This document shows positions 290-22,630 of a DNA stretch of 43,636 nt, one piece after another; positions within the stretch are counted from its first letter, which is position 1, and every line of letters begins with the position of its first letter. The stretch spans positions 1 through 43,636 of the forward strand of contig JYFJ02003328.1 in assembly GCA_000934665.2 (NCBI GenBank). The letters are read 5' to 3'. Under the pieces are notes generated by a model that had not been told where the DNA came from, searched no databases, and saw nothing but the letters and a program-made list of their open reading frames with translations. The position numbers and the translations under genes were made by a program. This DNA is from Catajapyx aquilonaris (Eukaryota).

Positions 290-331
<42 letters not shown>
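290..331. repeat. (TAT)n microsatellite
   Basis: About 14 trinucleotide units. Confidence 0.9.
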
Positions 332-332
<1 letters not shown>

Positions 333-1040
333 AGGTGCAGTCAATAAAGAACGAGCTGTATAATATATTGTGGAAAACCTGTGGGACAGGCAATAATGCT
401 GATTGGCAGGGATTAACCTTCAAACCTTAGAGAAAGTGATGTGCATGCACATGTGCGGCTCGAGTGAGCAGGTGTCGCGTGATCAAAAGGGTAGCAACAC
501 ACCGAAAGTGCCTTCCAGTCAATAAAAACAAGCTGAAAGCCATTATCAATGTCACGTTTTGCATTTTGTCAAAAGTATTGACTGTGATAATTTGTACATT
601 TATTCCCCTTAGACGCTACGCATGCAAATTCCTTCTCACAAGTCTTTGGGTTGTTACTAGAACCACGTCCAAACGCTCTTCTTCACTTCATTGTCCATCT
701 GGAATCAGCAAAGCTTTCTTCAGTTCACCAAAACTGCGGAAGTCTCAGTGTGACAGGTTGGTACTGCAGTGGGAGGGGGATGGCCGAGGACTTCCCACTT
801 CAATTTACTCGCAAGATCTTCGATGAAATTTTCTGTATGGGGGCAGGCATTACCATGGCATTTGGACAGCGCTTTCAGCAGGTGGCTTCCCTTTTGATCA
901 TGTGACGCAACAGCTGTCCCCTCTAGCCACACATGCTAATTTTCTTTAAGGTTTGAAGGTTATCCCTGTCAATCAGCGCTACTGCCTGTACCATAGGTTA
1001 TCCACAATAACTCAGGCTCCATTTTCATTGATCGCCCCCT
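333..1040. mobile_element. MITE family B (Tc1/mariner-like, TA-flanked), long form
   Basis: Imperfect ~175-bp inverted arms (333-510 and 869-1040) starting AGGTGCAGTCAATAAA; homologous to 18783-19116. Confidence 0.7.
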
Positions 1041-1258
1041 AGTACTTTCACTGAGCTCATACAATTACTCCATATTGAATGTACTATTTCACTCAAAAGA
1101 TGGAGACGATTTTGCATTTGGTTTCAGTGCGGACCAGATGCCCTTGTAGTCTTTCAAATGGATGGGCAGCAAATATTAGTAGCCAATACTTTTGATAACA
1201 ACTAAATATCATTAGGCTTGGGATTGTCCGAGCTATGAATATGATTTTTGAATGCCAT

Positions 1259-1445
1259 GTACATGGGTTGTTTCATAAGTCATTGCACGTATTTTTGAAT
1301 TCAAAAAAGCTGACGCATACAGATATGACCTTTGCCGATTTTGAAGCTCCGGCGATTACAATTTCATCTGGCTGTAGATGTCGCCCATATCACATGGGAG
1401 GCAGGGAAACAAAAGGGGATCATTACCCCACCACCGCACCACCGC
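1259..1445. mobile_element. MITE family C, single arm
   Basis: Matches the arms of 16853-17223 (taagtcattg, tacagatatgacc, ccggcgattacaattt, aaaggggatc). Truncated next to the TTAA element at 1451. Confidence 0.6.
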
Positions 1446-1450
1446 CTTAA

Positions 1451-1794
1451 GAAGGCCCGAGCTGTTGGACGATGCATGCTGGACACTCTGACAACACAGG
1501 AGCTTGCTTTCGAGTGTGGGACATGCCCCAGAGCCATATGTCATCCAACGCCACAAACCGTTTGAAAAAACCATCGCCCTCAATGCGATCGAGTTCCAAG
1601 CGAAGGCAAAATGGTGGCTCTTTTGCACCTCACAAAGATGGTGAGGAACCAGTGAGGATGTCACCTTCCTGAGACCTTTCCGTCTTTCAGACTCCTAAGC
1701 ATAGTACTCTGACTTGTCCCACACTCGAAAGCAAGCTCTAGTGTTGTCCATCGCCGAGTGTCCAGCACCTACAACTGCGAGTTGCTTCGCTTTT
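1451..1794. mobile_element. TTAA-flanked MITE-like element
   Basis: Inverted arms tgctggacactc..gagcttgctttcgagtgtgggaca (~1477-1523) and tgtcccacactcgaaagcaagctc..gagtgtccagca (~1714-1767); TTAA at 1447-1450 and 1795-1798. Confidence 0.55.
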
Positions 1795-2705
1795 TTAAAG
1801 ACCTAGTACTGTGAAAAATCGGTAGAAAACAATACCATCACTGTTTGAAGCCATTTCACGCTTCCACGCAACATGTGCACAAATATACAAGGTGGTTCAC
1901 TGCCCAGATTACAAGTCTGGCAACAGTAGAAAGTTGATGCACTGTGAATGTCCCAGCCATGCGAACTCATGGCCCTCTTTCGGTGCAATTGCACATTGTA
2001 TGATTGTTGCCGGGTTTTTATTACGAAATTGTAGAAAATTAAAATAGGCAACCTGCTGATCCTACTCTGACATTACTTATCAAGAACATCTGCAGTACCC
2101 CGCAATTGGCCTATCAAATTGTGCAAAATGTTACAGGTAACTTGAAAACTTGGCTGGAATCCTTGCGATGGCAACTCATTAAACCTGATAACAAAATGAA
2201 ACATGTCCCGAATTAAATTACAGTCTGCAGTCCCAAGTAGAGCAGTGTGCATAGAAATCTCCGTCTGCACAGTCTTGCTTATTATTTTACCTCTAGGTGG
2301 CTACAGGATTGGCAATGTTGTCAAATTAAAAGACTTAGATATTGTAGACCTGTGCATTACAATTCTCATTGAAAACTACCGCATTGGAAATCAATTAATT
2401 TTTTATAACTTCCGACGTTCCGAGCCCAACTTGTCGAAATACCAAACCCCATAAATGCTACCTCTGCAAAGCACACCCAATCGCTACAATATTAAAATAC
2501 ATAGCTACCGTTGGTGAATACAGCAATGCAAAAATTGTGTCATGATGGGTGATGGTACCAAAATGCTCAGTAAGCTTGGAAATTCATGTGTGATTGACTC
2601 TCAAACCAGAACATATCATTTTATAAAATTATAAGAAGAAAGAATCATTTGATATCCTCCTTTCCCAACCCACACCTCTCCCTTGGCATTGTCAGCGTGT
2701 TTCCA

Positions 2706-2779
2706 ATCCCCGCCAGGAATCGAACCTGGGACCATCTTCATTGCAATGCAAGAGTGCTCTGCCACTGAGCTACAGGGAT
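2706..2779 (-). ncRNA. tRNA-like cloverleaf T1 in POP1a intron (Ala-like)
   Basis: ATCCCTG-TA-GCTCAGTGGCAGAGC-ACTCTTGCATTGCAATGAAGATGGTC-CCAGG TTCGATT CCTGG-CGGGGAT. 7-bp acceptor stem extendable to 11 bp; irregular anticodon arm; no downstream T-run. Confidence 0.7.
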
Positions 2780-3142
2780 TAGATGAATGCCAGATCTCCC
2801 TCCCCCATCCACCCAGGTACAGAAAAAAAATCAGCCAAATTAAAAGCATAAAATAAAATAAAAGGCTTGCTTTCAAGAAAAATTTTGATACCATTGCCCA
2901 TTACAGACACGAGTAAATAATTATTAAATGTTGGGGGGTTGCTGATAATAATCACACCTAAATCTGAGTTTTTGTTCGCAAATAAACCAGCCTGAACTAT
3001 TGCAAGAGACAGCAACTACCGCCTACATCAAAGTGTTCTCATTCAAATTGAATCATCAATGTAAGGTAGCATTCAAGTTGCAACATCCACCTTCAGGACT
3101 CCAGCCACACAGGCGAACTGCAGTTTCCAAATTACACTTTAC

Positions 3143-3475
3143 AGGGGAGGCGAAGTGGCGCAACGGTAACGTTCGCGCACACGGATGTTAAGGTCTCGGG
3201 TTCGATCCCAACCTGGGGACACCCCCTTCATCTCGTGCAGAGTTCAGGGGTCGCCTCTGGCTTCGTCTCGGGTGGTATTTCCTACAGTCTAAACCACCCG
3301 GGGGAGTTCACTAAAAATGGCCACAGCGTCAGATGCACTGCACCTTGCACATCCGCTCCTGTCATCCTGCCCGTGGGCCCGGGCGATACGTACAAAGGCT
3401 CCAATGTACACAACAATTAAATAAAGGTCCATGCGATAAACCCTGATGGGTGAAAGCATTACCCAACCAATTATT
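3143..3475 (+). mobile_element. tRNA-derived SINE, copy 1
   Basis: A-box AGTGGCGCAACGG, B-box GGTTCGATCCC, body shared with 11140-11454, short ATT tail, and a 14-bp TSD aaattacactttac (3129-3142 and 3476-3489). Confidence 0.85.
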
Positions 3476-5351
3476 AAATTACACTTTACGAAGGGCCAAT
3501 GTGCATTAATATCCGATCCATCTGAATTACCAAATGCAAATTCCGTTACTCATCCAGTCAGAAACCTTAATAATCCCTCAATATGTCCAGCCTTCAAACT
3601 ACAGACACGATCTCAAGGCAGGTATACTCGAACCCCCCATAGAGGCATAAAACCCATTGTACACCAATGTTACCTCGAAGCAGCTCAATTTTTGTGGCAA
3701 TTAAGTCATGCATGGAGTTAAATAACTCTTCACCTGTCAAGGCACATGACCACTGTGTGGCTTATGCCCAGTTCATTCCCTTCAATCACTTTTGTGATAC
3801 TAGAATCTTTGCTCAACCTAAATGGCCTACAACAGGTTTTATGCAACTAGAGTGGTACGTTTCTAGCAGTATACCCACCTTGGTTCACCGTGTGACATGT
3901 AATCCAAAGGTAATGCCAATCTCCCACCTGAAAGCAATGTCAGGACGCAGGATGCATTCTCAATGGGAAAAAAAGATGGTTCACTCCATCTCAATACGTC
4001 TTGGTAATGGCGCATACGAAGCAATTGAGCTAAAAGATCTCCGCCCCTTCTACTTAGTCCTTACTTTGCATGCGTAATGGCCTAACATTATTTTCATCAT
4101 AAAATACTATCATAAAATCCTCAAGGGTGCCCAATGTTTGAGGCAGTGATTAGCAAAAAAGTTGCAGGAATATTTCTGGTAAAAAAAAAAAATCCCAGCA
4201 TATGGACGTTGGTATGAAGTTGGTTGGTCATGTTCATGGGGAAAGAAGGGTCACAAGGGTATTGTTCGAGTAATCCGTTGCGTCATAGAATTTCCAGGAG
4301 CAGATTTTAGCCTGCATACCAAACCATTGGTGCATTTGGGTTTGGCACTTTCAGGCTCTTACTCTCTTTCTCTAAGGTAATGTAGCCTAACCTCACAAGT
4401 CGTTCTGCAGTCTTCACCATGTCCACTTGCATAAAAGTGCAAATTTTACATCGCAGTCGTCACTCAAATCATGAAGCATTGCTTTTATAAGTAAAACCCA
4501 CATATCAAGAGTCTACATGTCGTTGAGATCGTGGTAAAATTTGCCCCATTATGCCGAAACAAGGTGCACGGCTGCATATTCCTGTTAATGTCGTAATAAA
4601 TTATAACTCACCAGCACAGAATCAACCGCAACCTCACAATTTCAGCACATGCATAAAATTCTCATTTAATAATTGTGCAACAAGGTGGCCTATCCATTAT
4701 TATCCATTATTTACCTCGCCACTGAATCTTCAGAATTGTACGTAAATGCCGAATGAGAAGCAACGGCCAATTCAGTGCAAGTGGCACGAATAACACAGCT
4801 CTACCACATCCTGTCCTTGGCCGAGGTGTCCACTGCTGCACAAAATGGAGCCTAATGGTGCAGAACCAAGTTCACAACCCTTCACCTGAAACAGCAAAAT
4901 TCTGGCATTAGTTTCACACATCCTCCAGATCACATTCGCAGGTGGCCAAACATTACTTACACGAGTCAGTTACAGCAGGCCTCATCAGCACTTCCTACAA
5001 TATTAATGCTCCCCCACATCTACAAGTACACTCCCTTTTACGAGTTGGAAGCATTTTCCCCACAAATTTCATCACTTTTATGAACCAAGGGGACCTGAAT
5101 TATGTCAACCAGTTCGGCAGTATCATTACCACAAACAAGTAAAAGCTTGAATCCTCTACAACTCGGTCTGACACTGAATTCTTATTTCAACTTCAGAATT
5201 TGCCATTGCCAACACCATTATTTCACTTCATCCTAACCTGACTTTTTCACAAGTCAAACTGCGCATGAGCAGGACTCCCTCCAGAGCCAACCCACAACCC
5301 CTGCTGGAATTCCACTGACTCAAGCTGAATGCTGCCAGTGCAGTGACTTCC

Positions 5352-5424
5352 GCCCCCGCCAGGAATCGAACCTGGGACCACCTCTCCTCGAGAGCGTGTG
5401 CTCTGACCACTGAGCTACAGGGGC
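5352..5424 (-). ncRNA. tRNA-like cloverleaf T2 in POP1a intron
   Basis: Acceptor GCCCCTG/CGGGGGC, D stem GCTC/GAGC, middle arm CAC-G-CTCTC-GAG-GAGAG-GTG, T arm CCAGG TTCGATT CCTGG. Confidence 0.7.
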
Positions 5425-5572
5425 TTCCTACATCTGCAAGACAGCAGTCAGGTAAATACAATTCACCTGCTTTTCCCATCTTTCAACTAAAAGGAAGAAC
5501 ATTCAAGCAGTCATTACGTGTTGTTCCACAAAAACAATTAAAAAGGCACAACCATGGCAGAGAGTGACCCTA

Positions 5573-5644
5573 GCCCCCGCTGGGAATCGAACCCAGAAAC
5601 ACACTTGACGTCCAGTGTGCACTCCGACCACTGAGTACAGGGGC
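5573..5644 (-). ncRNA. tRNA-like cloverleaf T3 in POP1a intron
   Basis: Acceptor GCCCCTG/CGGGGGC, D stem ACTC/GAGT, middle arm CACACT-GGACGTCA-AGTGTG, T arm CTGGG TTCGATT CCCAG. Confidence 0.7.
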
Positions 5645-6381
5645 TTCCCACTGACCACACATGGTTCCACATCACTCGCGTGCGCACACACATACACACA
5701 AAAATAAAATAAGTGCAGACTGCATAGATATTGGCAATGGCAATTTCCAAACATGCAAATGAATTTAATTCCTCCTATTTATGTAGGTCAGATCAGGTGG
5801 TGCAGTGACTTCAGAAATCATTCCCCATAGTAATCCGCACCAGATGAATGAATAAAAGCATCTCCAAAAGCAGCCAGACTGCCCAAGTTGAGCGCTCAAC
5901 TCATACTGCCCGACCACTTTTAGAACCGCATTTAATCAATCACACCACAACCACCTTCAACAAATGCTTCGATGAAGTTTCCCCCATCACAGCCAACCCA
6001 ATGGTTAAGCTTACCTTGCAGGTGACCACACGTGAACCCATTTCCAACACATGCAATTGTGGTAAGGTCCTGACACGCAAATAATCATGAAATGCAATCC
6101 CAATGTACACATATCCACTTGCTCTGAGTTTCAGTACTTAAAATTCCACGTCATAGGAATATTTTTTCCCTGCATTTAGATGCAGCAAGAACCATCTGCA
6201 ACAAAGCTAGTTATGATCTCATCCTATGTGGCTGCTCAGAAGCGACAGCATAATGTTGCAATACTAATCCGCAATTAAATTATTATTTTTTAAACATTGT
6301 TACTTCCTTGGCTTGGAGGAAACCCTTCTGTCAGGGTGAGGTGAGTAATGGGAAGTCATCGACTCCAGCATGGTGAGAGGT

Positions 6382-6452
6382 TCCCCCGCCGGGACTTGAA
6401 CCCGGACCTCGGATTGTGTAACCCGTGTCTTTGCCAGTTGGACCACAGGGGC
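6382..6452 (-). ncRNA. tRNA-like cloverleaf T4 in POP1a intron
   Basis: Acceptor (G)CCCCTG/CGGGGG(A), D arm GTC-CAACTGGCAAA-GAC, middle arm CGGGT-TACACA-ATCCG, T arm CCGGG TTCAAGT CCCGG. Confidence 0.65.
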
Positions 6453-6710
6453 GCCAATACCCGCTCTGTCATTTCGCATCAGGGTGAGATTGCAGTGAAT
6501 GGATCCAAAGAGGTTTTCTCCAGGCCTTCTTCCATCATAGTGATTTAACGGACAACATTATGCCGCCCTTCCACTTCCCCAAAGTGCTCTCATTTTCTTT
6601 CAATTTCAAGCACACGCTTGGCAGTGAAGAAATAACACACAGCGAAAAGTGCTTGCTCGTCATATTCACACCCATAAGCTCTGAACCTTGTAGTGGGTCT
6701 TTCGTTTTTG

Positions 6711-6783
6711 GCCCCCGCTGGGACTTGCACCCAGAACAGCACCGACCCCTAGGGACAGCACTGCACCACTTGGTTTCAGGGAC
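6711..6783 (-). ncRNA. tRNA-like element T5 in POP1a intron (counterpart of T8)
   Basis: Acceptor GTCCCTG/CGGGGGC, reduced D arm ACC-AAGT-GGT, long middle hairpin CAGTGCTG..CCC-TAG-GGG..CGGTGCTG, T arm CTGGG TGCAAGT CCCAG. Confidence 0.6.
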
Positions 6784-6844
6784 TGTTTTTGTCACCACTA
6801 CTTGGCCTCCTCCCCCCCGAACCCATTGGCATGTCACGTTTCCA

Positions 6845-6919
6845 ATCCCCGCCAGGAATCGAACCTGGGACCAGCCTCATTGCAATGCATTGAGTGCTCT
6901 GCCACTGAGCTACAGGGAT
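6845..6919 (-). ncRNA. tRNA-like cloverleaf T6 in POP1a intron (near-duplicate of T1)
   Basis: Same acceptor, D and T arms and immediate flanks as 2706-2779; middle arm CTCAATGC-ATT-GCAATGAG. Confidence 0.7.
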
Positions 6920-7192
6920 TAGATGAATGCCTCTTTCCCCTCATGGGCCATTTCAGTCAAGCACCAGTCATACACGGTAAGTTTAAGTGAGACCTTCTAT
7001 AAAACACTGCCATTCATAATCACCTTCACGTATTCCTTTCATACACATGTGTATTCAGCAATAAATAGGCACAGGCGAAATATTAATTAAGAGCATCAAA
7101 ATTCGTTAATTGTGCCTAAGGTGCCACGAATATACCTGGATGGAAACGTGTGTGAGTACGGAGACGTGTTGGAAATGAAAAAGACTCCAAAC

Positions 7193-10100
7193 CTGAAGTG
7201 CTGATCAGTCTTCTCTCTCCTCTTTACCCTTTCCTCCATCCGGCAGGCGGCTGAGTCCGGACAGTTCCAAGGAGCAGGCAGCTGCCCTTGCTCGTAAGCC
7301 GTGGCAGCAGCCTCCCTAAGCCCCCCAACTCGAGCCCCGCGGTACACTAAGCTGATCCAGAAGGCCATGGCCCAACCCGGAGGGACAATCACATCCCAAC
7401 CACAACCATAGCCTGGAATCATTTCGAAGGATGGGGAGGGGAGAGGACAGGACAAAAAAGAACATTGCATCAAGTAAACTTCGGAATGGCTCAAACGGCA
7501 AGACTTCTCATCTCACTTTTGGGCCTTCAATATTGCCTCAGGTTGTAAAAACAGGTCACAAAGAGCCACTTTTTTTTTGCATGCTAGCAAGGGTCTCGAC
7601 ATGTGACGATTCAATTAGGACTACAATTTTCAAACTTCACCGTTCTGGTGAATTGAATGACAAATGGAAGTGAAAGGCCCAAAATACGAGATGGGGGGGA
7701 CACAACAAAAGCAAAATGGCGGCCCGCTGTGATTGTGGGTGATGGGAAAGGAACAAAAAAAATAAAAAAGTGTGCAAACCATTCCTACCCAGCCTCTTCT
7801 CTTTGGGATCTTGGCTGCCGGGTCTTTGTATAAGTATGACTGGAACTCTGGCTTCATCTTGGCCCAGGTCCAGCGGAGTGCCGGGAATGGTGTGCCTGGC
7901 TCTTATCTCATTCATCTGGTTATCCGAGGTCTTGGTGGTGGTTACCTCATCCCTCACCCAGGCTTCCCATAAAGGGGATGCACTCAGCAGGGTAGGGAAC
8001 TCACCCAACGATTCCCCTGTTGTGTCCCATGTTACTGTACGAAACAAAGGGGTAGAGGTCACTCACAGCCACATCAAGCTAACGAATATGCGGTAAAAAA
8101 ATATATATTCCAGTGAAACTCCTGACGTACCATCGATGTCTGGTAAAACTTTAGTCCTCTTGGGTGGCAGCAACACCCTCGGATCTCTGACAGTCAGACC
8201 TAGTATGGCGCGAGGAGGAACCTGAGCTGGTGATAAGGCGCCTTCCAGATCCTGCCAGACAGCTCGCTGACCAGCTGCCGCTTTCTTCCCATCATCCGTG
8301 GCATAAAAGTACTGCCACCATTGAGGGCGACTGCGCCCTCGCTTTTGTTTCACTCCTATGCTCTCATCGCCACTGCTAAGATCGCTTTCCAGAAGCGGAG
8401 ACAGCACAGTGTTGTTGTTCTGCTTCACACACCCGTTGGCATCCCTCTTGACCGCAATCCCCTCCAAGTGGTGGCGCTTGAGGCCGCCATTTGGAGAATC
8501 ACGTGGCTTCCTTGCTGGCCTTATGTCCACAATATTGGCAGGTCTGAGGCAGCTGCTTAGAATGGCACCAGACGATGGTCCTTGAAGCCTAAATCGATTC
8601 AGTGTGTCCTTCAGCAATGCCATTCGGACAGCCCCATTGCTGAACTTGGGAACCCGTATAAATGGGATGTTGCGAGTGGCCAGTTTAAGCTGATCGACAT
8701 TTTTCCTGGGTCGTGATTCTTTGGCCAATTTCTTACGCTTCACATTCTCCTCATCTTCATCTTCCACCACGCATGGTATTATCTCATCCTCCAGGGGCGA
8801 CAAGCCAAATACCGCCACCAGCTCGTCCACAACTTCCTGGTAAAATGAGGGGTGGACCCAAATCCACAAGTTGCGTGAACGCTCAACATCCATGGGCAGC
8901 AATCCATGCTTGACCCTGGCATGGCGGAGGATCCGACCAGATGTGAGCCAGTCGAGGGGCCTCCACATGAAGGACACCTCCCCAATGGCTCCCTTCGGAT
9001 ATTCCCCCCTATGGAAGAGGACAGCGCTCCCTTCGCGGTTCCCACCCAGCAAGCTCTTGGCTGCAAAAGTGAGGCCGCAAGCAGGATCCGTTATGGCAGA
9101 GAGGCCTTCTAGAAGCTTATTCTCAGGGCCTTCTAGCTCTATACATACGTTGAAGGAGATATCCTGCAAGCCCCAGCCCGGAGGGAAAAGAGGAGCGATA
9201 ACAAAAGGCTGTGGGATTGCTTGTTAAAGCGGTTAATGTTATTTTGCATTAATTTGAAAATTTAATTGGATTTTTACTTGACTAATTCCTTCACATTTGT
9301 GTTCATGTCAAGTGCATCAAAAACTTTGCAAGTAATTATTCTGGAAAAGTTCCATGCAATCGAACAATCAACGAAACTTTTGACAAAATCATTTAAATGA
9401 AATATTTCGTTATTTTAGCAAATGTCACTGCGTGTCGAGACGCTCGTTAATCCCCGTGTTAGCAATACCCTACTGCTACCCACCAGAATTCCTCGGGTTA
9501 ACTTTACCTGTAATAGGCAATTACTTGCACTTGCTCGGTAGCAAGCTCTCACACTTTTGTCATTCGGAAAGTTGGCAATTTTATAGCCCCACTTTACAAC
9601 CACGTGAAACCTGCAAAAACAAGGGAGTCCTCAGAACCTTCACACTTTTTCTTTCTTTCTTTTCTTTTCTTTTTTTTTTTGCATTTCATACAATTCGGCA
9701 TCTCCTTCTGCTTCATCCAAAAGTAATAATAATCAAGGCAGCCACTCATCAAAAACATTAACTTCCACCTACCTGCTTCTACACACATGTACCCCCTGAG
9801 CTTTTCACAGCAAAAGTGATTCTCATGCAATGCGCACACAGTTGGTAATAAAACACACAGGAAACACATGACTATATGAATACTTTTGCTGTGAAACTCT
9901 CAAGTCAGAGTCAAGATGATGTCCTGCTCCTTTATTCTCTTAATTACCTACCTCATGGCTTAAAATCCTGAAATGAATGTTTTATTTGCAACATAACCAT
10001 CTCTTGTCTTTTTGGCCTTTTTTTTTGCCCCTTCCCAGCCAACCCACTTCAATTGTATTTTCATTCAAGCTGCTGCGACCTTCAGTTGTGATACCACAGT

Positions 10101-11026
10101 GGATAAGTGAAACTCACCCCCGCCGGGAATCGAACCCAGGACCACGCCGGTTGGGCGAATGCTCTAACCACTGAGCTACAGGGGCTCCCCACTAGGCACC
10201 AGGTATACACAACTTCAGTATGTTTTCCCAACCCCCCCTCCCACATTTCCTCAAATTAACATTGGGGGGGACGGAAAAGAAAGAGAGCACACCCCCTCGT
10301 AACATTTCACTCACCTTTTCGCATGCCACTTATGAGTTTCCAACCATACATTTTTCCTCTGCCGCCTGTTATACTCAGCCAAGAGGTTACTAGGTCTTCT
10401 ACGGAATTTTCGACTAGGTCTCTTTGACTTGAGTGGCATGCCACTCTTTTCCAACTGTAAGCAAAATGAAATATAAGTCTTTTTCGCAACCGTGACAACA
10501 AAACAGCCCACGAGACGTACCTGATTAATGTGAGGCTCTCTCAGTCTCCTGGGCATTCTGTTTGCATTGTGACTCATTGCCCTTCTCCTCATGTACCTTG
10601 GGAGTTGTTGGAACACAAGCGCAGTCTTGGTGGGGTTGTCTAGAGTGGAACATGTCGCATGAATATATGTTCCAAGTGTAGGCATGCGCCACCAACTGAT
10701 TTAGAGAAACCATTGCTATTGTTGCAAGTGGCGTTGAAAAATCAATGTCATATTTTACTGTAATCTGGCCTTATGTCTTCACAAAAGCGTATAATTTACA
10801 CGAGTCAAACATCTCTAGTTCCAAGAAAGGACGTGTCACACACAAAAATTCTCCCATGGCCTGGCTCACCTATAGACTGCGACATGGTTCCAAGCTCCTG
10901 CACCCTGGCAGCCACAAACTTTGTCATGGCCAGATCGGAGGTCAGCTCTTGTTGACCCCCTGCCAGGATGTCGAATTCTGTCTTCTGGGGCTCCATCTTG
11001 CACAGCATCCTTCTAAAGAGCTTCAT
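7193..11026 (-). CDS. POP1: RNase P/MRP protein subunit POP1, copy A (3'-partial; remaining exons presumably beyond the window start)
   Basis: Phase-consistent GT-AG exons: 11026-10870, 10639-10521, 10454-10315, 9610-9508, 9163-8131, 8034-7789, 7412-7193. The protein has POP1 hallmarks [55 protein letters not shown] and [22 protein letters not shown]. No RPNY-containing next exon was found in 1-7192. Confidence 0.93.
10116..10185 (-). ncRNA. tRNA-like cloverleaf T7 in the POP1a intron after the WHAKR exon
   Basis: Acceptor GCCCCTG/CGGGGGT, D arm GCTC-AGTGGTTA-GAGC, middle arm CGCC-CAACC-GGCG, T arm CTGGG TTCGATT CCCGG. Confidence 0.7.
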
Positions 11027-11139
11027 GCGAACCTCTATACTTAGTCACCCTCTTGTCTTGAAGCTAATCATCGTGCCTTACGTAGCGTCTGAAAAAAAAA
11101 AATCAATATTAATGCCCGTCGCATGTTAATGGTTATATC

Positions 11140-11409
11140 GGGAGGCGGAGTGGCGCTGCGGTAACGTACGCGCCCACGGACGTTATGGTCCCGGGTTTGA
11201 TCCCAGCCCGGGGACACCCCCTTGATCTCGTGAAGAGTTTAGGTCGTCTCTGGCTTCGTCTCGGGTGGTATTTCCTTAGACTAAACCACCCGGGGGAGCT
11301 CACGAAATGTACCCATAACAGTCCCTGCACTGCACTTTGCACATCCCCTCCTGCCCATGGGCCCGGGCGCTTCAATAGGCACCAATGTACAATAATAAAC
11401 TACCCCAGG

Positions 11410-11454
<45 letters not shown>
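11140..11454 (+). mobile_element. tRNA-derived SINE, copy 2
   Basis: Homologous to 3143-3475, with a long (ATT)n tail and a 17-bp TSD atgttaatggttatatc (11123-11139 and 11455-11471). Confidence 0.88.
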
Positions 11455-11456
<2 letters not shown>

Positions 11457-14435
11457 GTTAATGGTTATATCACAAATAACATAGTTTGGTGGTAAAGTTG
11501 CATCATTGATAGTAAAATGGGCCAGCCAGTTCGATTGCCCTCCATTTTGTTCCGCCCACTCACCATCCACCCACCCACCCACCAAGCCCGCCATTTTGTG
11601 CGACGTCATATTATTCGCCAAAAAATATATATTTTTACGCCCAAGTTTACGCTGCTAAAAAACAACAGGCAACGAACCGAACCCAGCAAACTTTAAACTG
11701 AGCTTAAATTGCCGCGCGTCGACTTAATTAACGTCGGGTTAAAATATTTAACCGAAGCTATTTTAACCCGGTTTATGTTGGGTAATTGGTAGCCTGCGAA
11801 TAGTTTTATGATTTGATATTTTTTGTACACTGTAAATATTGCAGTGGTCTGACCACCCTTACAAGATGGCCCGAATAGAACGGTTTTCCATGCCCGCTGC
11901 TTCCGGGGGCTGATTGCACGCTGGGGGGGCTCTGTACAACTCCGTACATTCCCATGCATCCGGTCCCGCCCCTGGTTGCACTCACCACCGCCTGTGGCCC
12001 GCCCCGGGGCCGCCCCACCGGCCCTCGTCAATCCTGCGTCGTTCCATCGAGGAAGGCGGAGATGGAATAAAAAGGAGGGGGATGCGTTCTGAGGGGGTGG
12101 GGCAGGGCGAGTGGGGCGAGGTTGCCACGTCGACCACGCTGCGTTGCCAAGTCGGGCAGGCGCCAGATTTCAACGTTTCGTTTCGTTCCAAATTGTTTCG
12201 AATGGGCCTTTTGGATGGCTAACAATGAGGCTTTTTTCAACACATTGTTGCATTGTTGTGGGGAGGTACCTGAACGGTACGGAGGTGTTTGTAACGGGAA
12301 GTGGGTTGCGTGGCGTGGCGCATGTGCGGGGTTGTTTTTGAGGGCAAGGCAGGAGCCTAGCCTCGCAGGCCAAGGGGTTCCTCACACCACCAGCCAGACG
12401 GCCATTTTGAATCGACCCACTCCCACAAGAACATTTTTTTGGAAAGAAAAAAAAAACGTAACCCGATGTTAGCTTCCGTAATGTAATTCTTCTGTTGTCG
12501 ATAGGTTGGAGGTCAACGAACTCACCTGTAATTATCCTGACCATAGTATCGGCGTAGTAGCTCACTGAAACATATGCTAGGTTATGCGAAAGGCGCATCA
12601 AATCTATGCAAAATCATGCCATTTTTGCACGTAAGTCGCAATAGTCTTTGCTCACGAAGGGCATTAATCAGATGGACATGAACCGCAGTGAACCTTGGAG
12701 AGTAACCAGGGTTAACCCACCCATACTAAAGAATTTCCATGTAACATTTCTCCGCTATGCAATAATCAGCATCGTTCTCTACTTGAAGAAATGAGGATTT
12801 CCACAGAACCCATCCAAATGAATCAAATGCATCACCAACAGATTATTCTGCATATAAGACCCTTATAGAGAAATAATTATGACAAATTCAGCCCTTCATA
12901 TCCGGTTACTTCGCATAATGAAGCCACTTTCGAGGCACTACGTGAAATCCAGGCCTAAGTTCTACTGATATTGGATCCGCCTACCATGAAACAAAGCCTT
13001 TGTTACGAGGCAGTTCTAAGAATGGTGATGACAAAGAGCAGGTCGTTTCTGTGTATCCGACTCGCGTATGCAGAGTACGGGCAACGTAAGATTTCGGAAT
13101 AATGTGCCACGCCATCTTTATCTACGCAGTCCTCTTGCTACCCTGAGACTCTTTCCCCCCCACCACAAAATGTGGGTCGCGGTCTTAACATCCCTCCAGC
13201 CTTCTTCCCAAACTCCTTCTGGTCCCTCGAAGGAGACATGCATGGAAACCCGATGATTTGGTGGCATGCAAGGAGTGGTAACCCACCTTAAGTTGTGGGG
13301 AGGCCAGGTCGCCAGCGGACCCCAGGACTCGCTGGGAGCTGGCATGGCGGCCATTTCCTGCTGCAGAGAGGAGGGAGAAGAAGGAAGGAGGCCTCTCTGT
13401 CTCCCACAGGAGGACGAAGAGGATGGGGAGGGTTGGAAGAGGGGGACTCCTGGTCTCCCCCTTGCCCCTCGCTAGCCTCGCACCCGATCAGGAACGGGCT
13501 GCAAAACAGGGAATTGTGTGATCCCAGCAGCCGTGTTCAGGCTTCTCCCACACGGCGCTGTTACCCACTCTATCCCGATTACGAGGGACAGGAGGGAAAA
13601 TGGGTTTCTTTTCAAGTTCTTTAGACTTGTGGTTAGGCAAGGTTCTGCAAAGGTGTAACATGTAACACAGGGAAGTAAACAGAACAATGCATTCATAGAA
13701 TTGTAAGGTGTTTGTGTACATGTAACAGAGGGAAGTAAACACCAATGCTTTCATATCACCGGAGCTTTATTTTAACACTAATTCCTTAGTGTGTACATAG
13801 GAATGATTTCTCCCAGTGGAAGTCAGTCAGAAATCTCTAATTTCTCAGATCTTTCCTGCAAGCAACCAGCCAGGCAATAAATGCATGGTCCCTCACACCA
13901 GCAAGTTCCTTCATATTATGGCAGGCCTGCCCATTATTTATGACCTACTGTCAGTAACAAGACAATACATGACATGAGTAAGCCACCCCCCTGTAATCCT
14001 AATAAGCTGGAGTCTAAATGCGAAACCTAGTACCAGGGTGAGCAAATTGTCAGTAAAAACATGGAGCTAGGTCTTACAAACTGGCGGTCCATGTGGCACT
14101 GGGACAATAGCAATTTGGGCAGATGTAAAAATATGCCCCATTAGTGAATTGTAATCTTTGCATGAAGCAGACAGAAACCATCTTACATAAGTTACAAACA
14201 AACATTCAATGGGTATCCCTTTGGTTTAGAACTGCTTGAATAACAAACCGAAGCACAAATGAACCAATCATTCACATCCAACTGGCAGTAAAATACTGAA
14301 CAATCTGTATTTAGCTCATCGGGACCTTAGAATCGAAAATTGGAACCTTTGCCATTTCAACTGTAACAGCCGACTGATTTCTACAAGTTGACTACTACAT
14401 CCCCATCAGAATGGCGTTATTTAAACCATTTGAGA

Positions 14436-17400
14436 TCACTGGGTAATGGCCAAATTAGCCAAGTGGTACTGATGCGAATCTGGGTTCCGTACAAGCACCT
14501 TAAGGTCCCTATTCCACGGCCTAGTGCTTATCAGTTTCAGCAATCCGGGAAGTGCTATGAATCCTAATCCTCTTCCCTGGCCCTCAGTCGCTGAGAATTT
14601 ACCCTGGCAAGCAAATCCAAATGTCTCCCTGGAGCATGCCTCACGAACTGTGGTTACATCTGCCAACCACAGAGAACGGAGCTTCTCATCATGTTGCATT
14701 CCCAAATCTGGCAAAGCATCAGCTGCAACCTTATCCTTTTGCCGATTGATTTGCTCTTGGTTCTTCCTTTTTTTCCTACGTTCCTGTTTTCTGGGAGTAA
14801 AATCCATTCTATTACATACCTATCGACATGAAATAGTATTATGTGTATTATAATATATTTAGAGGCTACTTCCTACCCAACACAATTATGTAGTATGCGT
14901 ATCAGTAGGATATAAATTTCAAATTTGTAAACTTGCATTACAAGCCTCCATTACATATGAGTAAAGATTGTGATAATAAAAGTGAAAATTTCCTAATCCT
15001 GGCATCCGGGCTTGTCACAAGCACGGCAAGAAAAAGCCACTCAGAAGCATTTCATTAAGATATTAAAGAAGTAACATGAAAGTCATGTACTTAACTTGGC
15101 CTGACCAATAACTTAACCGTAATTTTACATTAATTACATTTACAGCAAGGAGCCAGGGATCCTCAAACATTAGCTAATGAATCCATCTTTAAACGCTGCC
15201 CCAGCAGGGCTCAAAAAGAGTTTCATTGATCCTTTGATTATTCTGGCTTGTTTCATTGTCCAAGAAATTAAACTAAGACTGCTTTAAATTCCCTTGGAAA
15301 TTCAACCGTGCACCAATTTGGCTTTAATGTTCACTGGAAGAGTAATGTTCACATAGCATTTCCCATGCTCTTCTTACATGATTCATGTATACACTGAATA
15401 ATAATGTCAGTCAAACTATTACCAGTTAATGTTATGGTTGCAAGCTTACATAAATGATGCCAAATAATTTCGGGTTTATTTCAGGTGTGTACAGATACCT
15501 TAACATGGAAAAGTTTGCGGATCTCTACTTATACCAAATGTGGCAAAAAATTATGCCCCGAACATAAGTCAAGACTGTAAATAAATTCATACTTAATTCT
15601 GATGTGCTCGTGTCTAATTTCCTCCCTCTCAGCCTTGTGTATGTCCTTGTGCTGGGGTTCCGTCCAACCCTTCCTCTGTATGTCGATATTCTGAGGCAGG
15701 CAAATCATTGCTTGGGGTTTAATGTGGCCTTTTTTCACCAGGTTGATCTTGACGGCCACCAAGCAGTTCATCTCTTCTGCAGGAATCTTTTGCAAAAGTG
15801 ATCCTTTCATCTTTTGTTGTGGAGACAAGGCTTCACTCAGTAATTTCAGTCTCATTTTGTTTCTCAAAACAACAGGAACAAGCTGCACCCCCTTCATTTC
15901 TCCAGAAGCAGCAGCCCAGTCTTGTATTAGTTCACTCCACGGAGAGTGGAAAGGAGCCACTGACCCATACTTGACGTAGTTGGGACGATGACTAGGTGGC
16001 AACCTACAAGAATATATCGCTAAAGAGCCTCACCTAACCTGCACATTCATGATCTTGTCCCTTACAACATTATCCTGATAACACTTATGGATTATTATAT
16101 TCTGACTATTTCAATCACCGTGTCTTTTAAAACACGTAGCTTCAATTCCTACACCTGCCTATAAACTTACTAGTTCCTCCAAAGTTATATCCACCTTGAT
16201 GTGCTGGTGTGGCTCCGAGAGATATGTCAGAGTGGGATGTCTTGGCTTCCGACAGAGCCTTCCCAATTAAAATGGCATCTGAACATCCTGAGTCAAAGAG
16301 AGGCACCTCCTTACCTGTAGGTCCCTGCCTCCCTCAGTTATATCATTATTATTTATATTAACCTATGCTATGCTGCTTGGCCTTAGTTGCCCTGGCTCCT
16401 TCCACTAATCTAACTAGAAAACTTGGTAACGGTTTTTTTTAAAATAACCTGCTTAAGGGCTCCTTAACCCTGTAGCGGGCATTGTTGCCTGAGGGCAACA
16501 ATTAATTTGTGCAGGTGCCATAAGCTTCAACATTGGTCCTGGAAACCACAGTGTGGCTTGATGTCACAGTTAGTTTGTTAGCTTCCGCTGGATGACATGC
16601 AATGTCGACAATGTTACGATCGGGATATGGTATGAAGCGGAGAGGAGCCAAGGTCGTTGAAAATGGGGCGCGAAATTTGAATTTGCTGAAGCAGCAATTG
16701 TTTCTGGAGCTGATTAGATATAGGTGCAGATATTAAATATCCAATTGCATGTGTAACACTACAAGAGTAGCTCTCTCGTCGCCATTTGAGGCCATTCTAA
16801 TTTTGCCAGCACAATTTCATCACATTTTTTGGCGGCGCAGGCACAATATTGCTTGAGGTTTGTCCTAAGTCATTGTACTATTTTTATTCAAAAACGGAAA
16901 CATGTACAGATATGACCATTACTACGTTTTAAAGGCCCGGCGATTACAATTTGGACTGGAATATAGATGGCCCCGAGATCTCAAGGGGAGCCGGTAAACG
17001 AAAGGGGATCGTGACCCCCCACCCCGAGCTGCATGAGACGGTGGAAGGGTGGGGGTTATGATCGCCTTTAGTTTTCTGGTCCCCTTTGCGATATGGATGC
17101 CATCTATTTATCAGATGAAATTGTAATCACCGGACCTTCAAAACTTAGCAAAGGTTATCTCTGTATGTGTTACCATTTTTGAATAAAAAAATACTCGCCA
17201 TGACTTTTGACTCACCCGGTGTAACTTCAAAGTCATTGGGTCAGAGATGACCAAAACATAATAAAAACCATCCTTACGTCGCATATGATGAGAAAAGGGC
17301 GTTAGAATTTTTTTCTTCCCCCAATCCTAAATGTGTGCAGTACAGGGTTGATGTGATAATAAGGTGGATGTGGACATTAAGTCTGGATGAATCATTGAGA

Positions 17401-20400
17401 CCCTTTCATCCCAGACTTGTCACCAGGTTGAAATTGTATGTCACCAAGTAGCTTGGGTTGAACATATTCAGAAGAGTGGGAATGGTTTAAAAAATTTACT
17501 AGCGCACAATTAGCATTCCGATTGCCATATGCAACGTTAACCCTAGTGTTTTGTCGATTGCAGATAATGTTTAAAACTATTCTGTTGGGACAAAAAATAT
17601 TTGAGCTCCCCAAAATCACAAAAAACAACGAATCAACTTACGACATAACACAAAAGGAATGGCATGTATCCACATGTAGTGGTAGATAGTCACACTTGTT
17701 TTTTTTCCAAAAGCAGGCCAGCATTGATCTTGAAAAATTTTCCCATGAACTTATGCAAATACTGCCTGGAATTTCCCTTACTAGTTACTGCTAACTTAGC
17801 AGCACCATATTGCAATGGTAATGCTAAGTTAGCAGTAACTAGCAGTGGGACGAAAATTCCACCCAATGACATTCATCAGAAATAAACTACTTCAATTAAA
17901 ATAATGGCATTGTAGGACTTTATTCTCCACCATGTGGTAATACTAGCCTCCATGTCCAAGAAAGTCATTGAACACTGCGTGGGATCTTGACGTTAGAAGC
18001 CTGAATTGATGTCACCAGTGCGTCCACTCACCTTACGTAAAACTCAAGCCACTTGGGCATGAGGATTGCTTCATGTTTTCATAAATATGGACTAGTGCTA
18101 TTGACGTCAGGATCTGAATTAATCATGGATTCATTGCAATAATTTTGCTGTTTATAGCCGGTAATGAATGCGCGACAGCATTGGGCTGTAGGTCCCAGAT
18201 GTTATCAATGGAAATTTGGCTGAAAAGAGAGGGCTCTATCCTTATGGTGAACCATGCAGATGTCCATAAGCCATGAGTCTTCCCTTACCCTGCAAAATCT
18301 TGCTTATTTTAAAAGGAAAATAAATAAGATTTTTTTTTAAAAAACATTTCACTATAAGACAATCCACTGTCAGTGTTTGCAATCATATTTCACATATGAC
18401 TGCAACTATCTACCTGTAAATCACAACTAGACTGATATCAGCAATGTTCTTCCAATTCATAAGATTTTTTTTTTTTTTGGACAACAGACTGTAGTTGTTG
18501 TTATTCCTTTTTAATTGCAAGAGCCAAGGCAACTAAGGCCATGAGACATTGCTGGTTGTCGGTGTGACATACCATTACGTAGTGAAGCCCTACTACCAAC
18601 ATCTACTGATGTGTTGTCAGCCTATTCCACTACCCCTGCATATAACCGAATGTCTGTTATATCAGGAGTAAAAATACGCAGGGCCTTATGAAAGTTTGCC
18701 GGGACCAGCCTTTCGAGTCTGTTAAAACCGAAAGTCTGGTATAGCCAAGGCTGTTATATCCTGATTCAACTGTATTATTTTATGTGCGGTCAATAAAACA
18801 TGAGCCATTCCTATTGTGGAAAACGTGTGGGACAGGGAATAATGCGATTGGGAGGCACAACCTTCAAACCTTAAAGAAATTTATGTGAATGTGCATGTGA
18901 GGTTAGAGGGAGCAGCTGTCACATCACATGATCAAAAGGGAAGCAACACACGGAAAGTCGGTGCTTTAGTGGGTTGCTTCCCATTTGATCACATGATGCA
19001 CCGCCTGGTCCCTCTAGCCGCGCATAATTTTCTTTAAGGTTTGAAGGGTGATCCCTGCCAATGTGTCCCATGGGTTTTCCATGATAAAATTCGGCTCATT
19101 TTTTATTGACTGCACCTAATGTCATCAATTATTGTAAAACAAAACCTTTAATAGGACCTTCTCAAAGGAGAAAATACTTATCCTACCTTTCTTGCCTTAC
19201 AAAAGGCACATAACACATGCCACCATATCCGTTTTCAAACTGAACTTCAAACCATTAGCTCTTCTTAATTAATTTCAAACTCATCACCAACTGGCAGAAT
19301 AAAAAGTGCCTCGTTTTCGTCTGATGAGCAATTCAAGACTACAGAAATCCCATAACTTTTCTTTTATCTGTATTTTTCTCATCTGAGGAGCTCCCAAGCA
19401 AAATCAGCTCTATCCGACCGTGTGAAAAAATGAGTTTGAAGTGGCATTGAATTTTCCATGTTGTCCGCTACCTAGTATTTTGTATCATGACCCATTTGCT
19501 CCGTTCAAAAGAATGAAGCAGGAAGTGAAAAATAAGTACACAGGATGGAAGGTAGGTGAGGGACCATAAGAAGGATTCAGACATAAGGCCCATTCACACA
19601 GGCCGCCGCCGGTTTTGGTTTTTGGTCGCGTTGACACCGCGGACCAATCTGACTCATGTAAACAAGCACAACCCATTGTTTAGAGCTTGTTTACATGGGT
19701 CATGATTGGTCCGCACGGTCAACGCGACCAAAAACCAAAACCGTCGATGGCCTGTGTGAATGGACCTATAAGGGATGTATAAACTACCAGATACATTGGA
19801 TTTGTGCCCATTCCAAGGGACACAAATGTGAGCTGAGATGGGACTACCAGCACACACAACCAGTACCAGTACTCTCAAGTAGCACGACCCCCTGTTGTTT
19901 TCAGGCCGTCAATGGTGGAGCCATCATCAGTAGCCCTGCCCTCAATGGCCATCTAACGGTCACGGCTTGGGTGCACGGACACAAGCCACCCATCAAACTC
20001 ATTCGCGTGAAGGGCCACAAGGAGTAAGCATGAATAATAGTCTAGCACCATCCTGGAACAATAAAATTACACCAATTGCATTTTCAACCAACAAATTACC
20101 AACGTCACCATCTTGGAGAAGTGGTCTTTGTACTCACAGTCAGAGTTGCAAGCCTTCAAAGTTCACCAAATATCAAAAACAAAATTTAAAAATCTTGTTG
20201 TCTTAACTCCACTTATGACTGAACCTAATCCAACATTACGATTATGCACAAAACAATCCCACTAGGCATGCAAAGCATTACAAACTGCCCGAATCAAGAA
20301 CCAAAGTACCTGTGTTCACTAAACAGAAGCTAATTCGTTGCATGTGGTGTCGTTTGGCCCCTGCTGGGAATTGCACCCAGAACAACACGTGTTTTCACAC

Positions 20401-22630
20401 AGTGTTGCACCGCTTGGAACAAGAGCGATTTGTCACCACTACAACACTAACGGAAGTTAGGGGATAGTATTTCAAGAAGACATGCAGCAAAGTAGCAACA
20501 TCTTAATCACATGAATCACTAGTTTTAGTCAGATGTAAAGACCCACCAATCATTGAAATTACTCTACCCTGCAGCTAGCTTCAAAATAATCGCATTCATT
20601 GCTTCACAGAATGAAAACAAGAGTCAAACCTGAAATACTCATCAGTGTTCTCTTTCCTCTTGATGGCTTCGTCCTTTCTGCAGGCCTCTGAATCGGGACA
20701 GTTCCAAGGTGGCAGAAGCCTTCCTTGCTCAAAAGCTATGGACGCTGACTCCTGCATGCCTATCACCTTGGCGCCTCGCTTCATCAGGCTCTTCAGGAAA
20801 GCATTTGCCCAGCCTCGCGGTAGGATCACATCCCATCCACAACCAAAACCTGCAACAATTACACACTCAGTATGGGATCCAAATGTGCAACTCAACAAGC
20901 GCAAAATTATATTGTTGTTTATGAATAAACATTACATTTTTTTTAGATCACGCTAGTCCATTATTCTATGATCTTAGGGCAGTAATACCATATTTACAAC
21001 CTTTGCATGGCTACCGTACCAGTCTTTTCCCCATTTCTGTCTTGCACACCAGGAATCTGAACTAAGATAATTGGCACAGCAGACTCATCATCCCCTAGAT
21101 CCAGCAGGCCTCCTCCGGGAGCAAATTGGGCTTTCAGGTCATTTAGATGCTGGTCTGACGTCATGGTGTCTGTCACATCTTGCCGCACAATCTTGTCCCA
21201 CAGTGGTGAGAAACTCACCATCGACGGAAGCGTGGCAATGGAGCTACCAGAAGTGTCCGAAGTGTCAGCTGCAAAATTAAATTCAAGCTAAGTAATGAGC
21301 GGTGAATAAAATCATGGCATACCTCCGGTAACGGACAAAACACTGGGCTTAAAAATTGACTTAAATCTTCCACACACCCTCAGTGTCCGGTTGTGCGTCC
21401 TGTTGAACAACCAGACGGGGATCTCGCACCACCACACCTAACACGGACTTCGGTGGTAACTGCGAGGGAGACTGTACACCTGCCATTGCCTTCCAGGTAC
21501 GATTCTGCACTTCAAATGCCGTCTTCCTGTCTTCCGTGGTATAGAAAGTAGTCCACCACTTGGACAGGCTCTGGCACCGCTCGAGCGTCACAGCCCCAGC
21601 TTTTCTTCTGACATGCTCACCTAAAATTCTAGCTGGCTTCAGACAATGCTGAAGAGTAGTTAGAGACTCGCTTCCTAAGACTCGGAATCTGTTCAGCAGG
21701 CCTTTCAATGCGCAAAGTCGCACAACGCCATTGCTGTACTCCATGTCTTTACGTCTCTTTTGAGGTGGTTCAGCCTTTTCCTCGAAAGATGAGACCAGCT
21801 GTTCCCAAATATCTTCCCAGAAGGACGGGTGGGCCCAAATCCAAAGGAGGCGCCTTTCATTTTCATCCTTGCTTTCGAGGGGCCTCCACATGAAGGCCAC
21901 TTCCCCGATGGCACCCCTCGGATACAAACCACTCTGAAAGAGTAAGCAGCTTCCCTCATGGCTTCCGTTCAGGTAGCTCGCAGCCGCAAAAGTCAGTCCG
22001 CACAACTTGCTTGTGAGAGAGGACAGGCCATCCACAAGCTGATTTTGCGGGCCTTCAAGTTCGATGCACACATAGAACGAAAGATCCTGCAATATTTGAG
22101 AAAACAGCATCAGATTTGGATCCACAGCACTGTACGCTCTAACGAGTACCTGAACTGTGCAATTGGAAGACAGCTTCTCATTGGGAATGTCCGCTATATT
22201 ACAACCCCATGCTTGAACCATCCGGAACCTGCAACAGCAACATACTTTTTCCACAAGCACTCACAGGTCGTCGAGACAAACATGAAAAACAGCAATAATT
22301 CAATTTGCTTGAAATCCGTGGTCCTTGCTGCAGGCTACCACGGCAGCGTTTGGATATCACCCCCGCTGGGAATCGAACCCAGAACCACACCCGATTCCAG
22401 GTGCTGCTCTGACCACTGAGCTACAAGAGTTCGTCACCATCCACCGGGGCAGCCCTTAGCAACGCACCTTTCACCAAAATCATCTGAACAGCCCATCTGC
22501 GCATCTTTCATGACTTTTGCCTCAGACTCACTCAATTTCCCTGCTCACCAAACAACGAGAGGCGTACTCACCACTTGGCATGCCAATCGTGCGTTTCCGT
22601 CCGAGCCGACGTGTCATTGTTACTTGACAT
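14436..22630 (-). CDS. POP1: POP1 paralog, copy B; N-terminally truncated and diverged, ~693 aa
   Basis: Exons 22630-22572, 22228-22150, 22086-21378, 21268-21020, 20849-20630, 16003-15593, 14790-14436 (2082 nt, open frame). Intron positions and phases match copy A where comparable. Motifs ETHDWHAKWFRM, LLWIWAHPS, GFGCGWDVILPRGW, RLPPSHRPNY, VLVRNPDSHQYHLA. The start codon is inferred. Confidence 0.85.
16853..17223. mobile_element. MITE family C, palindromic copy (Tc1/mariner-like end)
   Basis: Imperfect ~180-bp inverted arms; right end GACTTTTGACTCACCCGGTGTA. Confidence 0.62.
17768..17860. repeat. Short inverted repeat (hairpin or MITE remnant)
   Basis: Perfect 21-bp arms ctagttactgctaacttagca (17781-17801) and tgctaagttagcagtaactag (17822-17842). 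Confidence 0.75.
18783..19116. mobile_element. MITE family B, internally deleted hairpin form
   Basis: TA-TGTGCGGTCAATAAAA ... TTTTATTGACTGCACC-TA; the arms abut directly. Confidence 0.72.
19587..19766. mobile_element. MITE family A, full palindromic copy (PIF/Harbinger-like)
   Basis: TAA-GGCCCATTCACACAGGCC ... GGCCTGTGTGAATGGACC; the element is near-palindromic throughout. Confidence 0.7.
20357..20426 (-). ncRNA. tRNA-like element T8 in POP1b intron (counterpart of T5)
   Basis: Acceptor GCTCTTG/CAGGGGC, middle arm CAACAC-T-GTGT-GAAA-ACAC-GTGTTG, T arm CTGGG TGCAATT CCCAG. Confidence 0.6.
22359..22430 (-). ncRNA. tRNA-like cloverleaf T9 in the POP1b intron after the WHAK exon (counterpart of T7)
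   Basis: Acceptor ACTCTTG/CGGGGGT, D arm GCTC-AGTGGTCA-GAGC, middle arm CACCTG-GAAT-CGGGTG, T arm CTGGG TTCGATT CCCAG. Confidence 0.7.

Follow-up and report, generated by a model that had tools for sequence, protein, structure and literature searches.

The contig JYFJ02003328.1 (C1694) of the 285.6-Mb Catajapyx aquilonaris assembly, which is analysed here as one window at its full length of 43,636 nucleotides, contains two POP1 genes, A and B, both on the minus strand. In each of them the phase-2 intron that interrupts the WHAK(R/W)F motif carries a tRNA-like cloverleaf, named T7 in A and T9 in B, whose flanks pair with each other in an outer helix. Comparison of the two loci indicates that T7 and T9 very probably derive from one element that occupied this intron before the gene duplication and that was kept as an RNA fold in both copies; that selection retained these folds is, in our judgement, also highly probable. 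T7 and T9 are two of about 180 such folds that form a family in sense-strand introns. As a reading of the whole family, to which we assign a probability of roughly 0.3, we propose a tRNA-derived, clamp-on-stalk cassette, present in about 180 introns transcribed by RNA polymerase II (Pol II), that RNase P and RNase Z may excise, that may tune the mRNAs of its hosts and for which POP1 may be an autoregulatory hub. The features that carry the argument are as follows.

1..11026, minus strand: POP1 paralog A, seven coding exons in the window (exon map, Pfam)
14438..22630, minus strand: POP1 paralog B, six coding exons, about 714 aa (exon map, Pfam)
9611..10314, minus strand: phase-2 intron of POP1-A, 704 nt, host of T7 (exon map)
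22229..22571, minus strand: phase-2 intron of POP1-B, 343 nt, host of T9 (exon map)
10116..10185, minus strand: T7 cloverleaf, with an acceptor of 7 bp, a D loop of 8 nt, a middle arm of 4 bp with a 5-nt loop and a canonical T arm (ARAGORN, Rfam, fold)
22359..22430, minus strand: T9 cloverleaf, with an acceptor containing three G-U pairs, a D loop of 8 nt, a middle arm of 7 bp with a 4-nt loop and a canonical T arm (ARAGORN, Rfam, fold)
10187..10214, minus strand: T7 outer helix, 5' arm (leader) (duplex energy, fold)
10084..10112, minus strand: T7 outer helix, 3' arm (trailer) (duplex energy, fold)
22437..22462, minus strand: T9 outer helix, 5' arm, ends approximate (duplex energy, fold)
22325..22352, minus strand: T9 outer helix, 3' arm, ends approximate (duplex energy, fold)

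Both cloverleafs were called by ARAGORN and by the Rfam model RF00005 on the minus (sense) strand, the latter at 44.1 bits for T7 and 47.3 bits for T9 (gathering score 29), and they start 129 and 141 nt from the donor, respectively. The two hosting introns are GT-AG introns, B reading WHAK-W-FRMVQAWG across the junction, and in both paralogs retention of the intron would end the frame immediately. The sequence-only reading of this DNA had placed one cloverleaf per paralog in this intron in spite of the difference in length (704 vs 343 nt), and the two callers and the exon maps agree with it; the chance of finding a family copy in a 343-nt intron is p ~2-3e-4, taking about 180-250 copies in 285.6 Mb. 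Its description of middle arms unrelated in sequence and of acceptor changes compatible with G-U pairing also held on re-inspection. The claim that both middle arms pair stood for the predicted stems, with a difference between them: the T9 arm was more stable than its own shuffles (p=0.01), whereas the T7 arm was not (p=0.15). The minimum-energy fold of T7 is the cloverleaf.

Compared with functional tRNA genes, T7 and T9 retain the cloverleaf with canonical D and T loops, but neither possesses a 5-bp anticodon stem with a 7-nt loop or a CCA end. No T-run terminator for RNA polymerase III (Pol III) lies within 45 nt downstream of T7 or T9, while a downstream T run was present in 12/12 true tRNA genes fetched. 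The stretch of T7 from the D arm to the T arm aligns well with tRNA-Ala of the same genome, and this likeness, together with the canonical D and T loops, argues against a mitochondrial origin of the family. A genome search for a nuclear tRNA-Thr donor gave no match. The closest of eight true tRNAs to T7 (73%) and to T9 (65%) was L117 (G000:C4164:2630-2701), called as tRNA-Lys(TTT), terminator present, unlike the other Lys genes fetched. The 3' end of T7 (10110-10191, minus strand) additionally holds a consensus donor and an AG 6 nt ahead, which would delimit a potential 76-nt frameshifting cryptic exon; because T9 has neither the donor nor the AG, these signals are probably due to chance.

The paired cloverleafs of the sequence-only reading were thus borne out, but two things had been overlooked, namely the outer helix and the dispersed genome-wide family. 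In T7 and in T9, the flanks outside the acceptor stem, leader and trailer, pair with each other over about 25 bp, which gives the outer helix. The duplex between the 35-nt flanks had an energy of -25.4 kcal/mol in T7 and -32.6 kcal/mol in T9, each better than all 186 non-cognate pairings, and that of T9 was the strongest among 94 copies. Folding with flanks gave z scores of -2.4 (T7) and -2.3 (T9), versus -1.2 and -1.35 for the reverse strands. Of ten homologous outer-helix pairs of T7 and T9, aligned by hand, six differed, five of them in one base and one in both bases, and none was broken; leader and trailer also paired across paralogs, with duplexes of -19.8 and -24.2 versus a non-cognate mean of -11.9. 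The outer helix is found in the family as well: -16.5 versus -11.9 in a first set (n=94, p=5e-12; shifted control -11.6; 12 true tRNA genes -9.4) and -16.0 versus -11.7 in a replication (n=39 including one true tRNA, p=1e-6), with 31/94 copies below the 5th percentile. On the family average, leader positions -1 to -4 and trailer positions +1 to +3 are unpaired and A-rich, the helix lying further out. Homologous flanks with the outer helix intact were observed on separate contigs (L039/L051/L075/L090 and L042/L100), which implies that either the element carries its stalk along or the hosts were duplicated together with it.

The common descent of T7 and T9 is established mainly by their flanks. 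The alignable part of the two introns comprises only 93 nt (76% identity, E 9e-15). Among 131 other copies, each of the two 20-nt leaders has the other as its best match, with 12/20 positions identical without gaps (next best 10 and 9, mean 4.8), and by a gapped score for both flanks in 131 copies T9 ranked T7 first and T7 ranked T9 third. As for the frame, the nearest to T9 among 126 copies is T7, tied with L010, and T7 ranks T9 6/126. The two frames share 89% identity, but 9% of the pairs in the family are at least as similar, and five copies lie nearer to T7; for this reason, core similarity alone is weak proof of kinship. The 8-nt D loop is shared by only 4/127 parsed copies (T2, T7, T9 and L026). 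A second pair, T5 and T8, occupies another intron with copies in both paralogs, and the best flank match of T5 is T8 (1/131). The host genes, for their part, are old duplicates: A and B share 46% protein identity, their synonymous sites are saturated (pS 0.785; four-fold sites differing 101/146) and they form one clade in a quick tree of 29 proteins (Shimodaira-Hasegawa-like approximate likelihood ratio support 99), B being a long branch. Flank kinship, the rare D loop and the saturated paralogs together support the earlier suggestion that the elements predate the duplication and were retained, and by the flank and frame ranks T7 and T9 do not fall into different dispersed subfamilies.

To define the family we used a T-arm pattern, which gave 90 genome matches, and a D-arm pattern, which gave 153; reversed controls gave 0. 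From the overlap of the pattern sets (53/62), the family comprises about 180 copies as a lower bound. An element specific to POP1 was thereby ruled out, the family being dispersed across the genome. A metagenome scan for relatives yielded three matches, all of them prokaryotic tRNA-Thr genes. In 93 copies the pairs 1:72, 2:71, 6:67, 50:64 and 51:63 exceeded all 2000 column shuffles, in a test limited by a search pattern that predetermined some of the 3' strand and by shuffles that took no account of the relatedness of copies; the 15:48 pair did not covary. Forty further loci, chosen by the D arm alone, included one true tRNA-Ala gene and one degenerate copy; 39/40 had a full T stem and 28/40 an acceptor of 7/7 pairs, and the T loop read TTCRAYT in 37/38 copies. 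With a mean identity of 79% between copies, stems remain intact and the acceptor, D and T arms covary, while the anticodon arm is free: middle arms of 10-85 nt cannot be aligned, and they fold better than shuffles in 75/118. At the extremes, L011:1499-1631 has an 85-nt middle arm that is still closed by a stem, and the arms of L031, L037, L048 and L102 measure 10-14 nt. A CCA is nearly absent (1/132 copies), and downstream T runs are not in excess (22/132 copies vs 20% background). Within 45 nt per side, 131 copies had no excess of the direct repeats expected of target-site duplications over swapped flanks (14 vs 12.6 at k=7, 0 at k=9), although old duplications could have decayed.

The orientation of the copies with respect to their hosts was determined with a Pfam scan of 728 frames, 725 of them filtered from 87 loci (358 sense, 367 antisense) and three picked by eye. 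Matches were obtained in 18/87 loci, on the element strand only in 17, on the opposite strand only in 0 and on both in one, the other 69 being undecided; all 17/17 one-strand loci were therefore sense. The hosts are unrelated to each other (transporters, proteases, CUB, cuticle, homeobox, HMG, CP2 and others), and four fully read copies lie in introns of roughly 220-290 nt. Splice hexamers in the 87 loci were biased to the element strand (95:51, 109:56 and 143:83), as were acceptor hexamers in the validation loci (50:30 and 60:43). A codon-score strand caller (24 same, 6 opposite at score >=10) overlooked known exons and was discarded as noisy.

POP1 is the host with the largest cluster. The family profile recovered nine full copies in the window, all of them sense and within POP1 introns, versus 0.02 expected for this span, and among the matches listed every other contig had at most three copies. 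The nine represent at least four subtypes. Besides T7 and T9 they are:

2706..2779, minus strand: T1, family copy (ARAGORN, Rfam, family profile)
5352..5424, minus strand: T2, T7 lineage, 8-nt D loop, outer helix (Rfam/ARAGORN, duplex energy, comparison)
5573..5644, minus strand: T3, T7 lineage, outer helix (duplex energy, comparison)
6382..6452, minus strand: T4, family copy of another subtype (family profile)
6711..6782, minus strand: T5, divergent copy in the long intron of A, counterpart of T8 (family profile, flank match)
6845..6919, minus strand: T6, family copy, local duplicate of T1 (family profile)
20357..20425, minus strand: T8, divergent copy in the matching intron of B (family profile, flank match)

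In the other clusters (C263 with three copies, C641, C1066 and C8461), nine selected frames of 271 had no Pfam match; by eye, we take one of them to be chitin-binding-like and one neuropeptide-like.

The fold kept in both paralogs lacks a usable anticodon, and a small A-rich internal loop connects its cloverleaf to the outer helix that the flanks form. We propose that this fold arises in the Pol II pre-mRNA, to which sense-only placement and the absence of terminators assign it. Its acceptor-T helix and D/T elbow would be presented to nuclear RNase P and subsequently to RNase Z, and binding or cutting could shift the amount of splicing of the host intron or the survival of the host. The outer helix might hold the cut ends, in which case splicing would be rescued, or might gate or shield the cut site, its direction of action being uncertain. 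According to the available part of PMC8509007, recognition of the elbow in human RNase P falls to the RNA, and the acceptor stem is held by Pop1. With nine copies in the gene for the very subunit that holds the acceptor stem, the activity of RNase P would in turn affect POP1 mRNA; this feedback would most probably be negative, although its direction too is uncertain. Of the features of an RNase P substrate, the family has a 7+5 bp acceptor-T helix and an elbow of D-loop GG and T-loop C56, and the parts that were kept (acceptor-T helix, D-loop GG, T-loop C56) and the one that was freed (anticodon arm) match the way RNase P reads its substrates. In the predicted folds, the 5' leader is open in T9, but in T7 only 1 nt is open, next to three G-U pairs. 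For the whole of this mechanism, that is, RNase P and RNase Z reading folds in pre-mRNA with feedback on POP1, we put the chances somewhat short of even.

Several observations weigh against this proposal. The first comes from a sequencing run, X5, whose kind is unrecorded; X5 joins two exons of B, and so behaves as RNA. Its contigs cannot reveal RNA ends or levels, its slight coverage of the long intron was not used as evidence, and the findings reported are among the matches listed. One X5 contig spans 9507-10285 with the T7 intron unspliced and T7 whole (0 differences), the next intron also being partly covered unspliced; cutting would then be at most partial. The T7 leader is paired up to -2 in the predicted fold, which could block the cut site, and in the minimum-energy fold of T9 the acceptor and middle stems are present but the D and T arms are lost, the D strand being paired to the variable region in this alternative fold. 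In the family, 63/94 copies miss the 5th percentile for the outer helix, the covariation test has the two limits given above, and the bias of donor hexamers was not replicated in the validation loci (36:40 and 20:26). The link to POP1 is one noticed after the fact, the cluster arose in part by local copying (T1/T6; T2/T3/T7), and genes for tRNA processing account for 0/17 identified hosts. Moreover, no full copy was found in 69 kb around RPP30, POP4, ELAC2 and three POP5/RPP14 matches, gene ends being unmapped and RPP21, RPP25, RPP40 and the RNase P RNA not searched. No full copy lies in C1726:1-14000 either, these stretches giving only partial matches, which fall on the T arm of a different abundant repeat. 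Finally, the human intronic cloverleafs called nimtRNAs are described as not processed in the accessible part of PMC7722341.

This last observation leads to the principal alternative, that the folds are kept uncut and, bound by other proteins, enhance or silence splicing from within the intron in a structure-dependent way, in the manner of nimtRNAs, and that the cluster in POP1 is due to local duplication within a long intron. We regard it as possible, though doubtful. Sense-only placement, copies in introns of about 220-290 nt, unrelated host genes and the uncut T7 in X5 would all be expected, and nimtRNAs likewise act in sense only, require their T arm and are unprocessed, as far as the consulted part of PMC7722341 goes. 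What it leaves unexplained is why POP1 should be the top cluster with at least four subtypes, and why the leader/trailer loop is open at both processing sites.

It is unlikely that the introns are carriers of a small tRNA-like RNA, freed by RNase P and RNase Z and itself the object of selection, with the outer helix keeping the cut intron together for the splicing of the host. Intact acceptor, D and T arms, the lack of a Pol III terminator and the outer helix would suit such a product, as would the precedent of GUT15 (PMC6152437, in the part available) and weak matches to the mascRNA model RF01684 (21-26.8 bits in the family, gathering score 42.5; T7 22.2, T9 not listed). However, copies that are 79% alike with unrelated middle arms would be odd for a single trans-acting product, and each paralog retained the fold on its own despite about 180 other sources.

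Neutral relics of a body-less tRNA-derived short interspersed nuclear element (SINE) or of a small palindromic element, with T7 and T9 as independent insertions or products of gene conversion, are already disfavoured and seem to us quite improbable. The family is certainly dispersed, the 89% identity of T7 and T9 is matched by 9% of all pairs in it, and the changes between the two are mostly one-sided transitions into G-U; nevertheless, this explanation does not account for homologous flanks and a rare D loop shared across saturated paralogs, for 17/17 sense copies, for the lack of direct-repeat excess or for stems intact at 79% mean identity, and gene conversion would have homogenised the middle arms too. 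Least probable of all are A-box/B-box sites acting at the DNA level for TFIIIC, as an insulator or a nested Pol III gene. The best-conserved bases do coincide with the A and B boxes, but a DNA site requires neither acceptor and outer-helix pairing nor a host-strand bias, and the T run of true tRNA genes is missing behind family copies.

The RNase P/Z proposal has relatives among known systems. The mascRNA/menRNA (RF01684) is a tRNA mimic without a decoding arm that is cut by RNase P and RNase Z from a Pol II transcript, where it lies at the 3' end of a long noncoding RNA (lncRNA) and adjoins a triple helix; our family shares the missing decoding arm and the Pol II transcript, but is intronic and scores below the gathering score of that model. 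Body-less tRNA-derived SINEs and tRNA retropseudogenes, of the rodent ID type, are equally dispersed, of tRNA origin and endowed with A and B boxes, whereas the family is in one orientation, maintains its stems and has no excess of target-site duplications. Feedback through the transcript of an enzyme's own subunit is known from the hairpins of DGCR8 mRNA, which are cut by Drosha; there, as in POP1, a subunit transcript carries the substrate of the enzyme, although enzyme and substrate differ and the feedback is demonstrated there and only proposed here.

A parallel within an intron is the tRNA-like RNA of GUT15 in Arabidopsis, which, as described in the available part of PMC6152437, is processed and inhibits the splicing of its own intron. 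It resembles our elements in being a tRNA-like fold in a Pol II intron, without an autonomous Pol III gene, and it alters host splicing, as our elements may do; yet GUT15, going by that part, is a single lncRNA locus, and the arthropod family has about 180 copies, in introns of protein-coding genes, with a free anticodon arm, an outer helix and a POP1 cluster. The nimtRNAs, to the extent that PMC7722341 was accessible, are also numerous intronic cloverleafs that depend on sense orientation and on shape, but they are unprocessed mitochondrial insertions, in contrast to the nuclear-type canonical D and T loops and pairing flanks found here. The intron-encoded RNase P RNA of insects (PMC4287351, seen in part) is a separate matter. 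In the literature that we could search, most subscription papers being outside its scope, we found no paper on tRNA mimics within introns of POP1 or on an arthropod family like this one, nor a description of how cells match the supply of RNase P proteins to need. Intronic tRNA mimics, known from few cases (GUT15, nimtRNAs), are a known kind; their stalked, anticodon-free, multicopy form clustered in POP1 is new.

T7 and T9 represent a clean natural experiment, with two 140-nt folds whose stems were compensated across saturated paralogs, in the gene of the subunit that binds acceptor stems, and in the wider family there would be many candidates for pre-mRNA substrates, other than tRNAs, of nuclear RNase P and RNase Z. 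If the proposal is true, the tRNA-processing capacity of the cell would tune a set of mRNAs, and nuclear RNase P would be autoregulated through its own pre-mRNA.

Regarding the host genes, the closest proteins to the window genes are annotated insect POP1 proteins (34-39% identity), and both POP1_N and POPLD of Pfam match in window exons. Paralog A continues through a long intron that leaves the contig, its final two exons being at G000:C1726:4860-5721 (plus strand), and the exons of the window and of C1726 together keep a reading frame open for at least 936 aa. Paralog B (14438-22630, minus strand) is without the N-terminal ~115 aa, the arginine-rich N-terminal region being gone; its frame is open and its last intron is spliced in an X5 contig. 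In B, W replaces the R of WHAKRF, which is invariant in 28 other rows, and B is possibly a repurposed POP1. Another X5 contig, at 9207-9536, differs from the assembly by 8 letters and 13 gap positions, compared with 0 in 779 nt for the contig of the T7 intron.

The POP1 introns also contain palindromic repeats resembling miniature inverted-repeat transposable elements (1-113, 19578-19767, 16881-17189 and 18780-19137), one such repeat interrupting the assembly between C1694 and C1726. Another tRNA-headed, SINE-like repeat at 11140-11370 and 3145-3378 (plus strand; antisense to POP1 at 3145) is very abundant, with a summed DNA depth of about 56,000 vs 30-35. Farther along the window, an armadillo-repeat gene at 39242-43331 (minus strand), presumably ARMC8-like as judged by eye, has an open frame of 377 aa, which long frames of the opposite strand overlap at 41430-41954. 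Exons of a cysteine-rich gene that by eye is EGF/von Willebrand-like span 32013-39043 (plus strand), and tandem repeats lie within it at 34569-34957 and 35368-35919.

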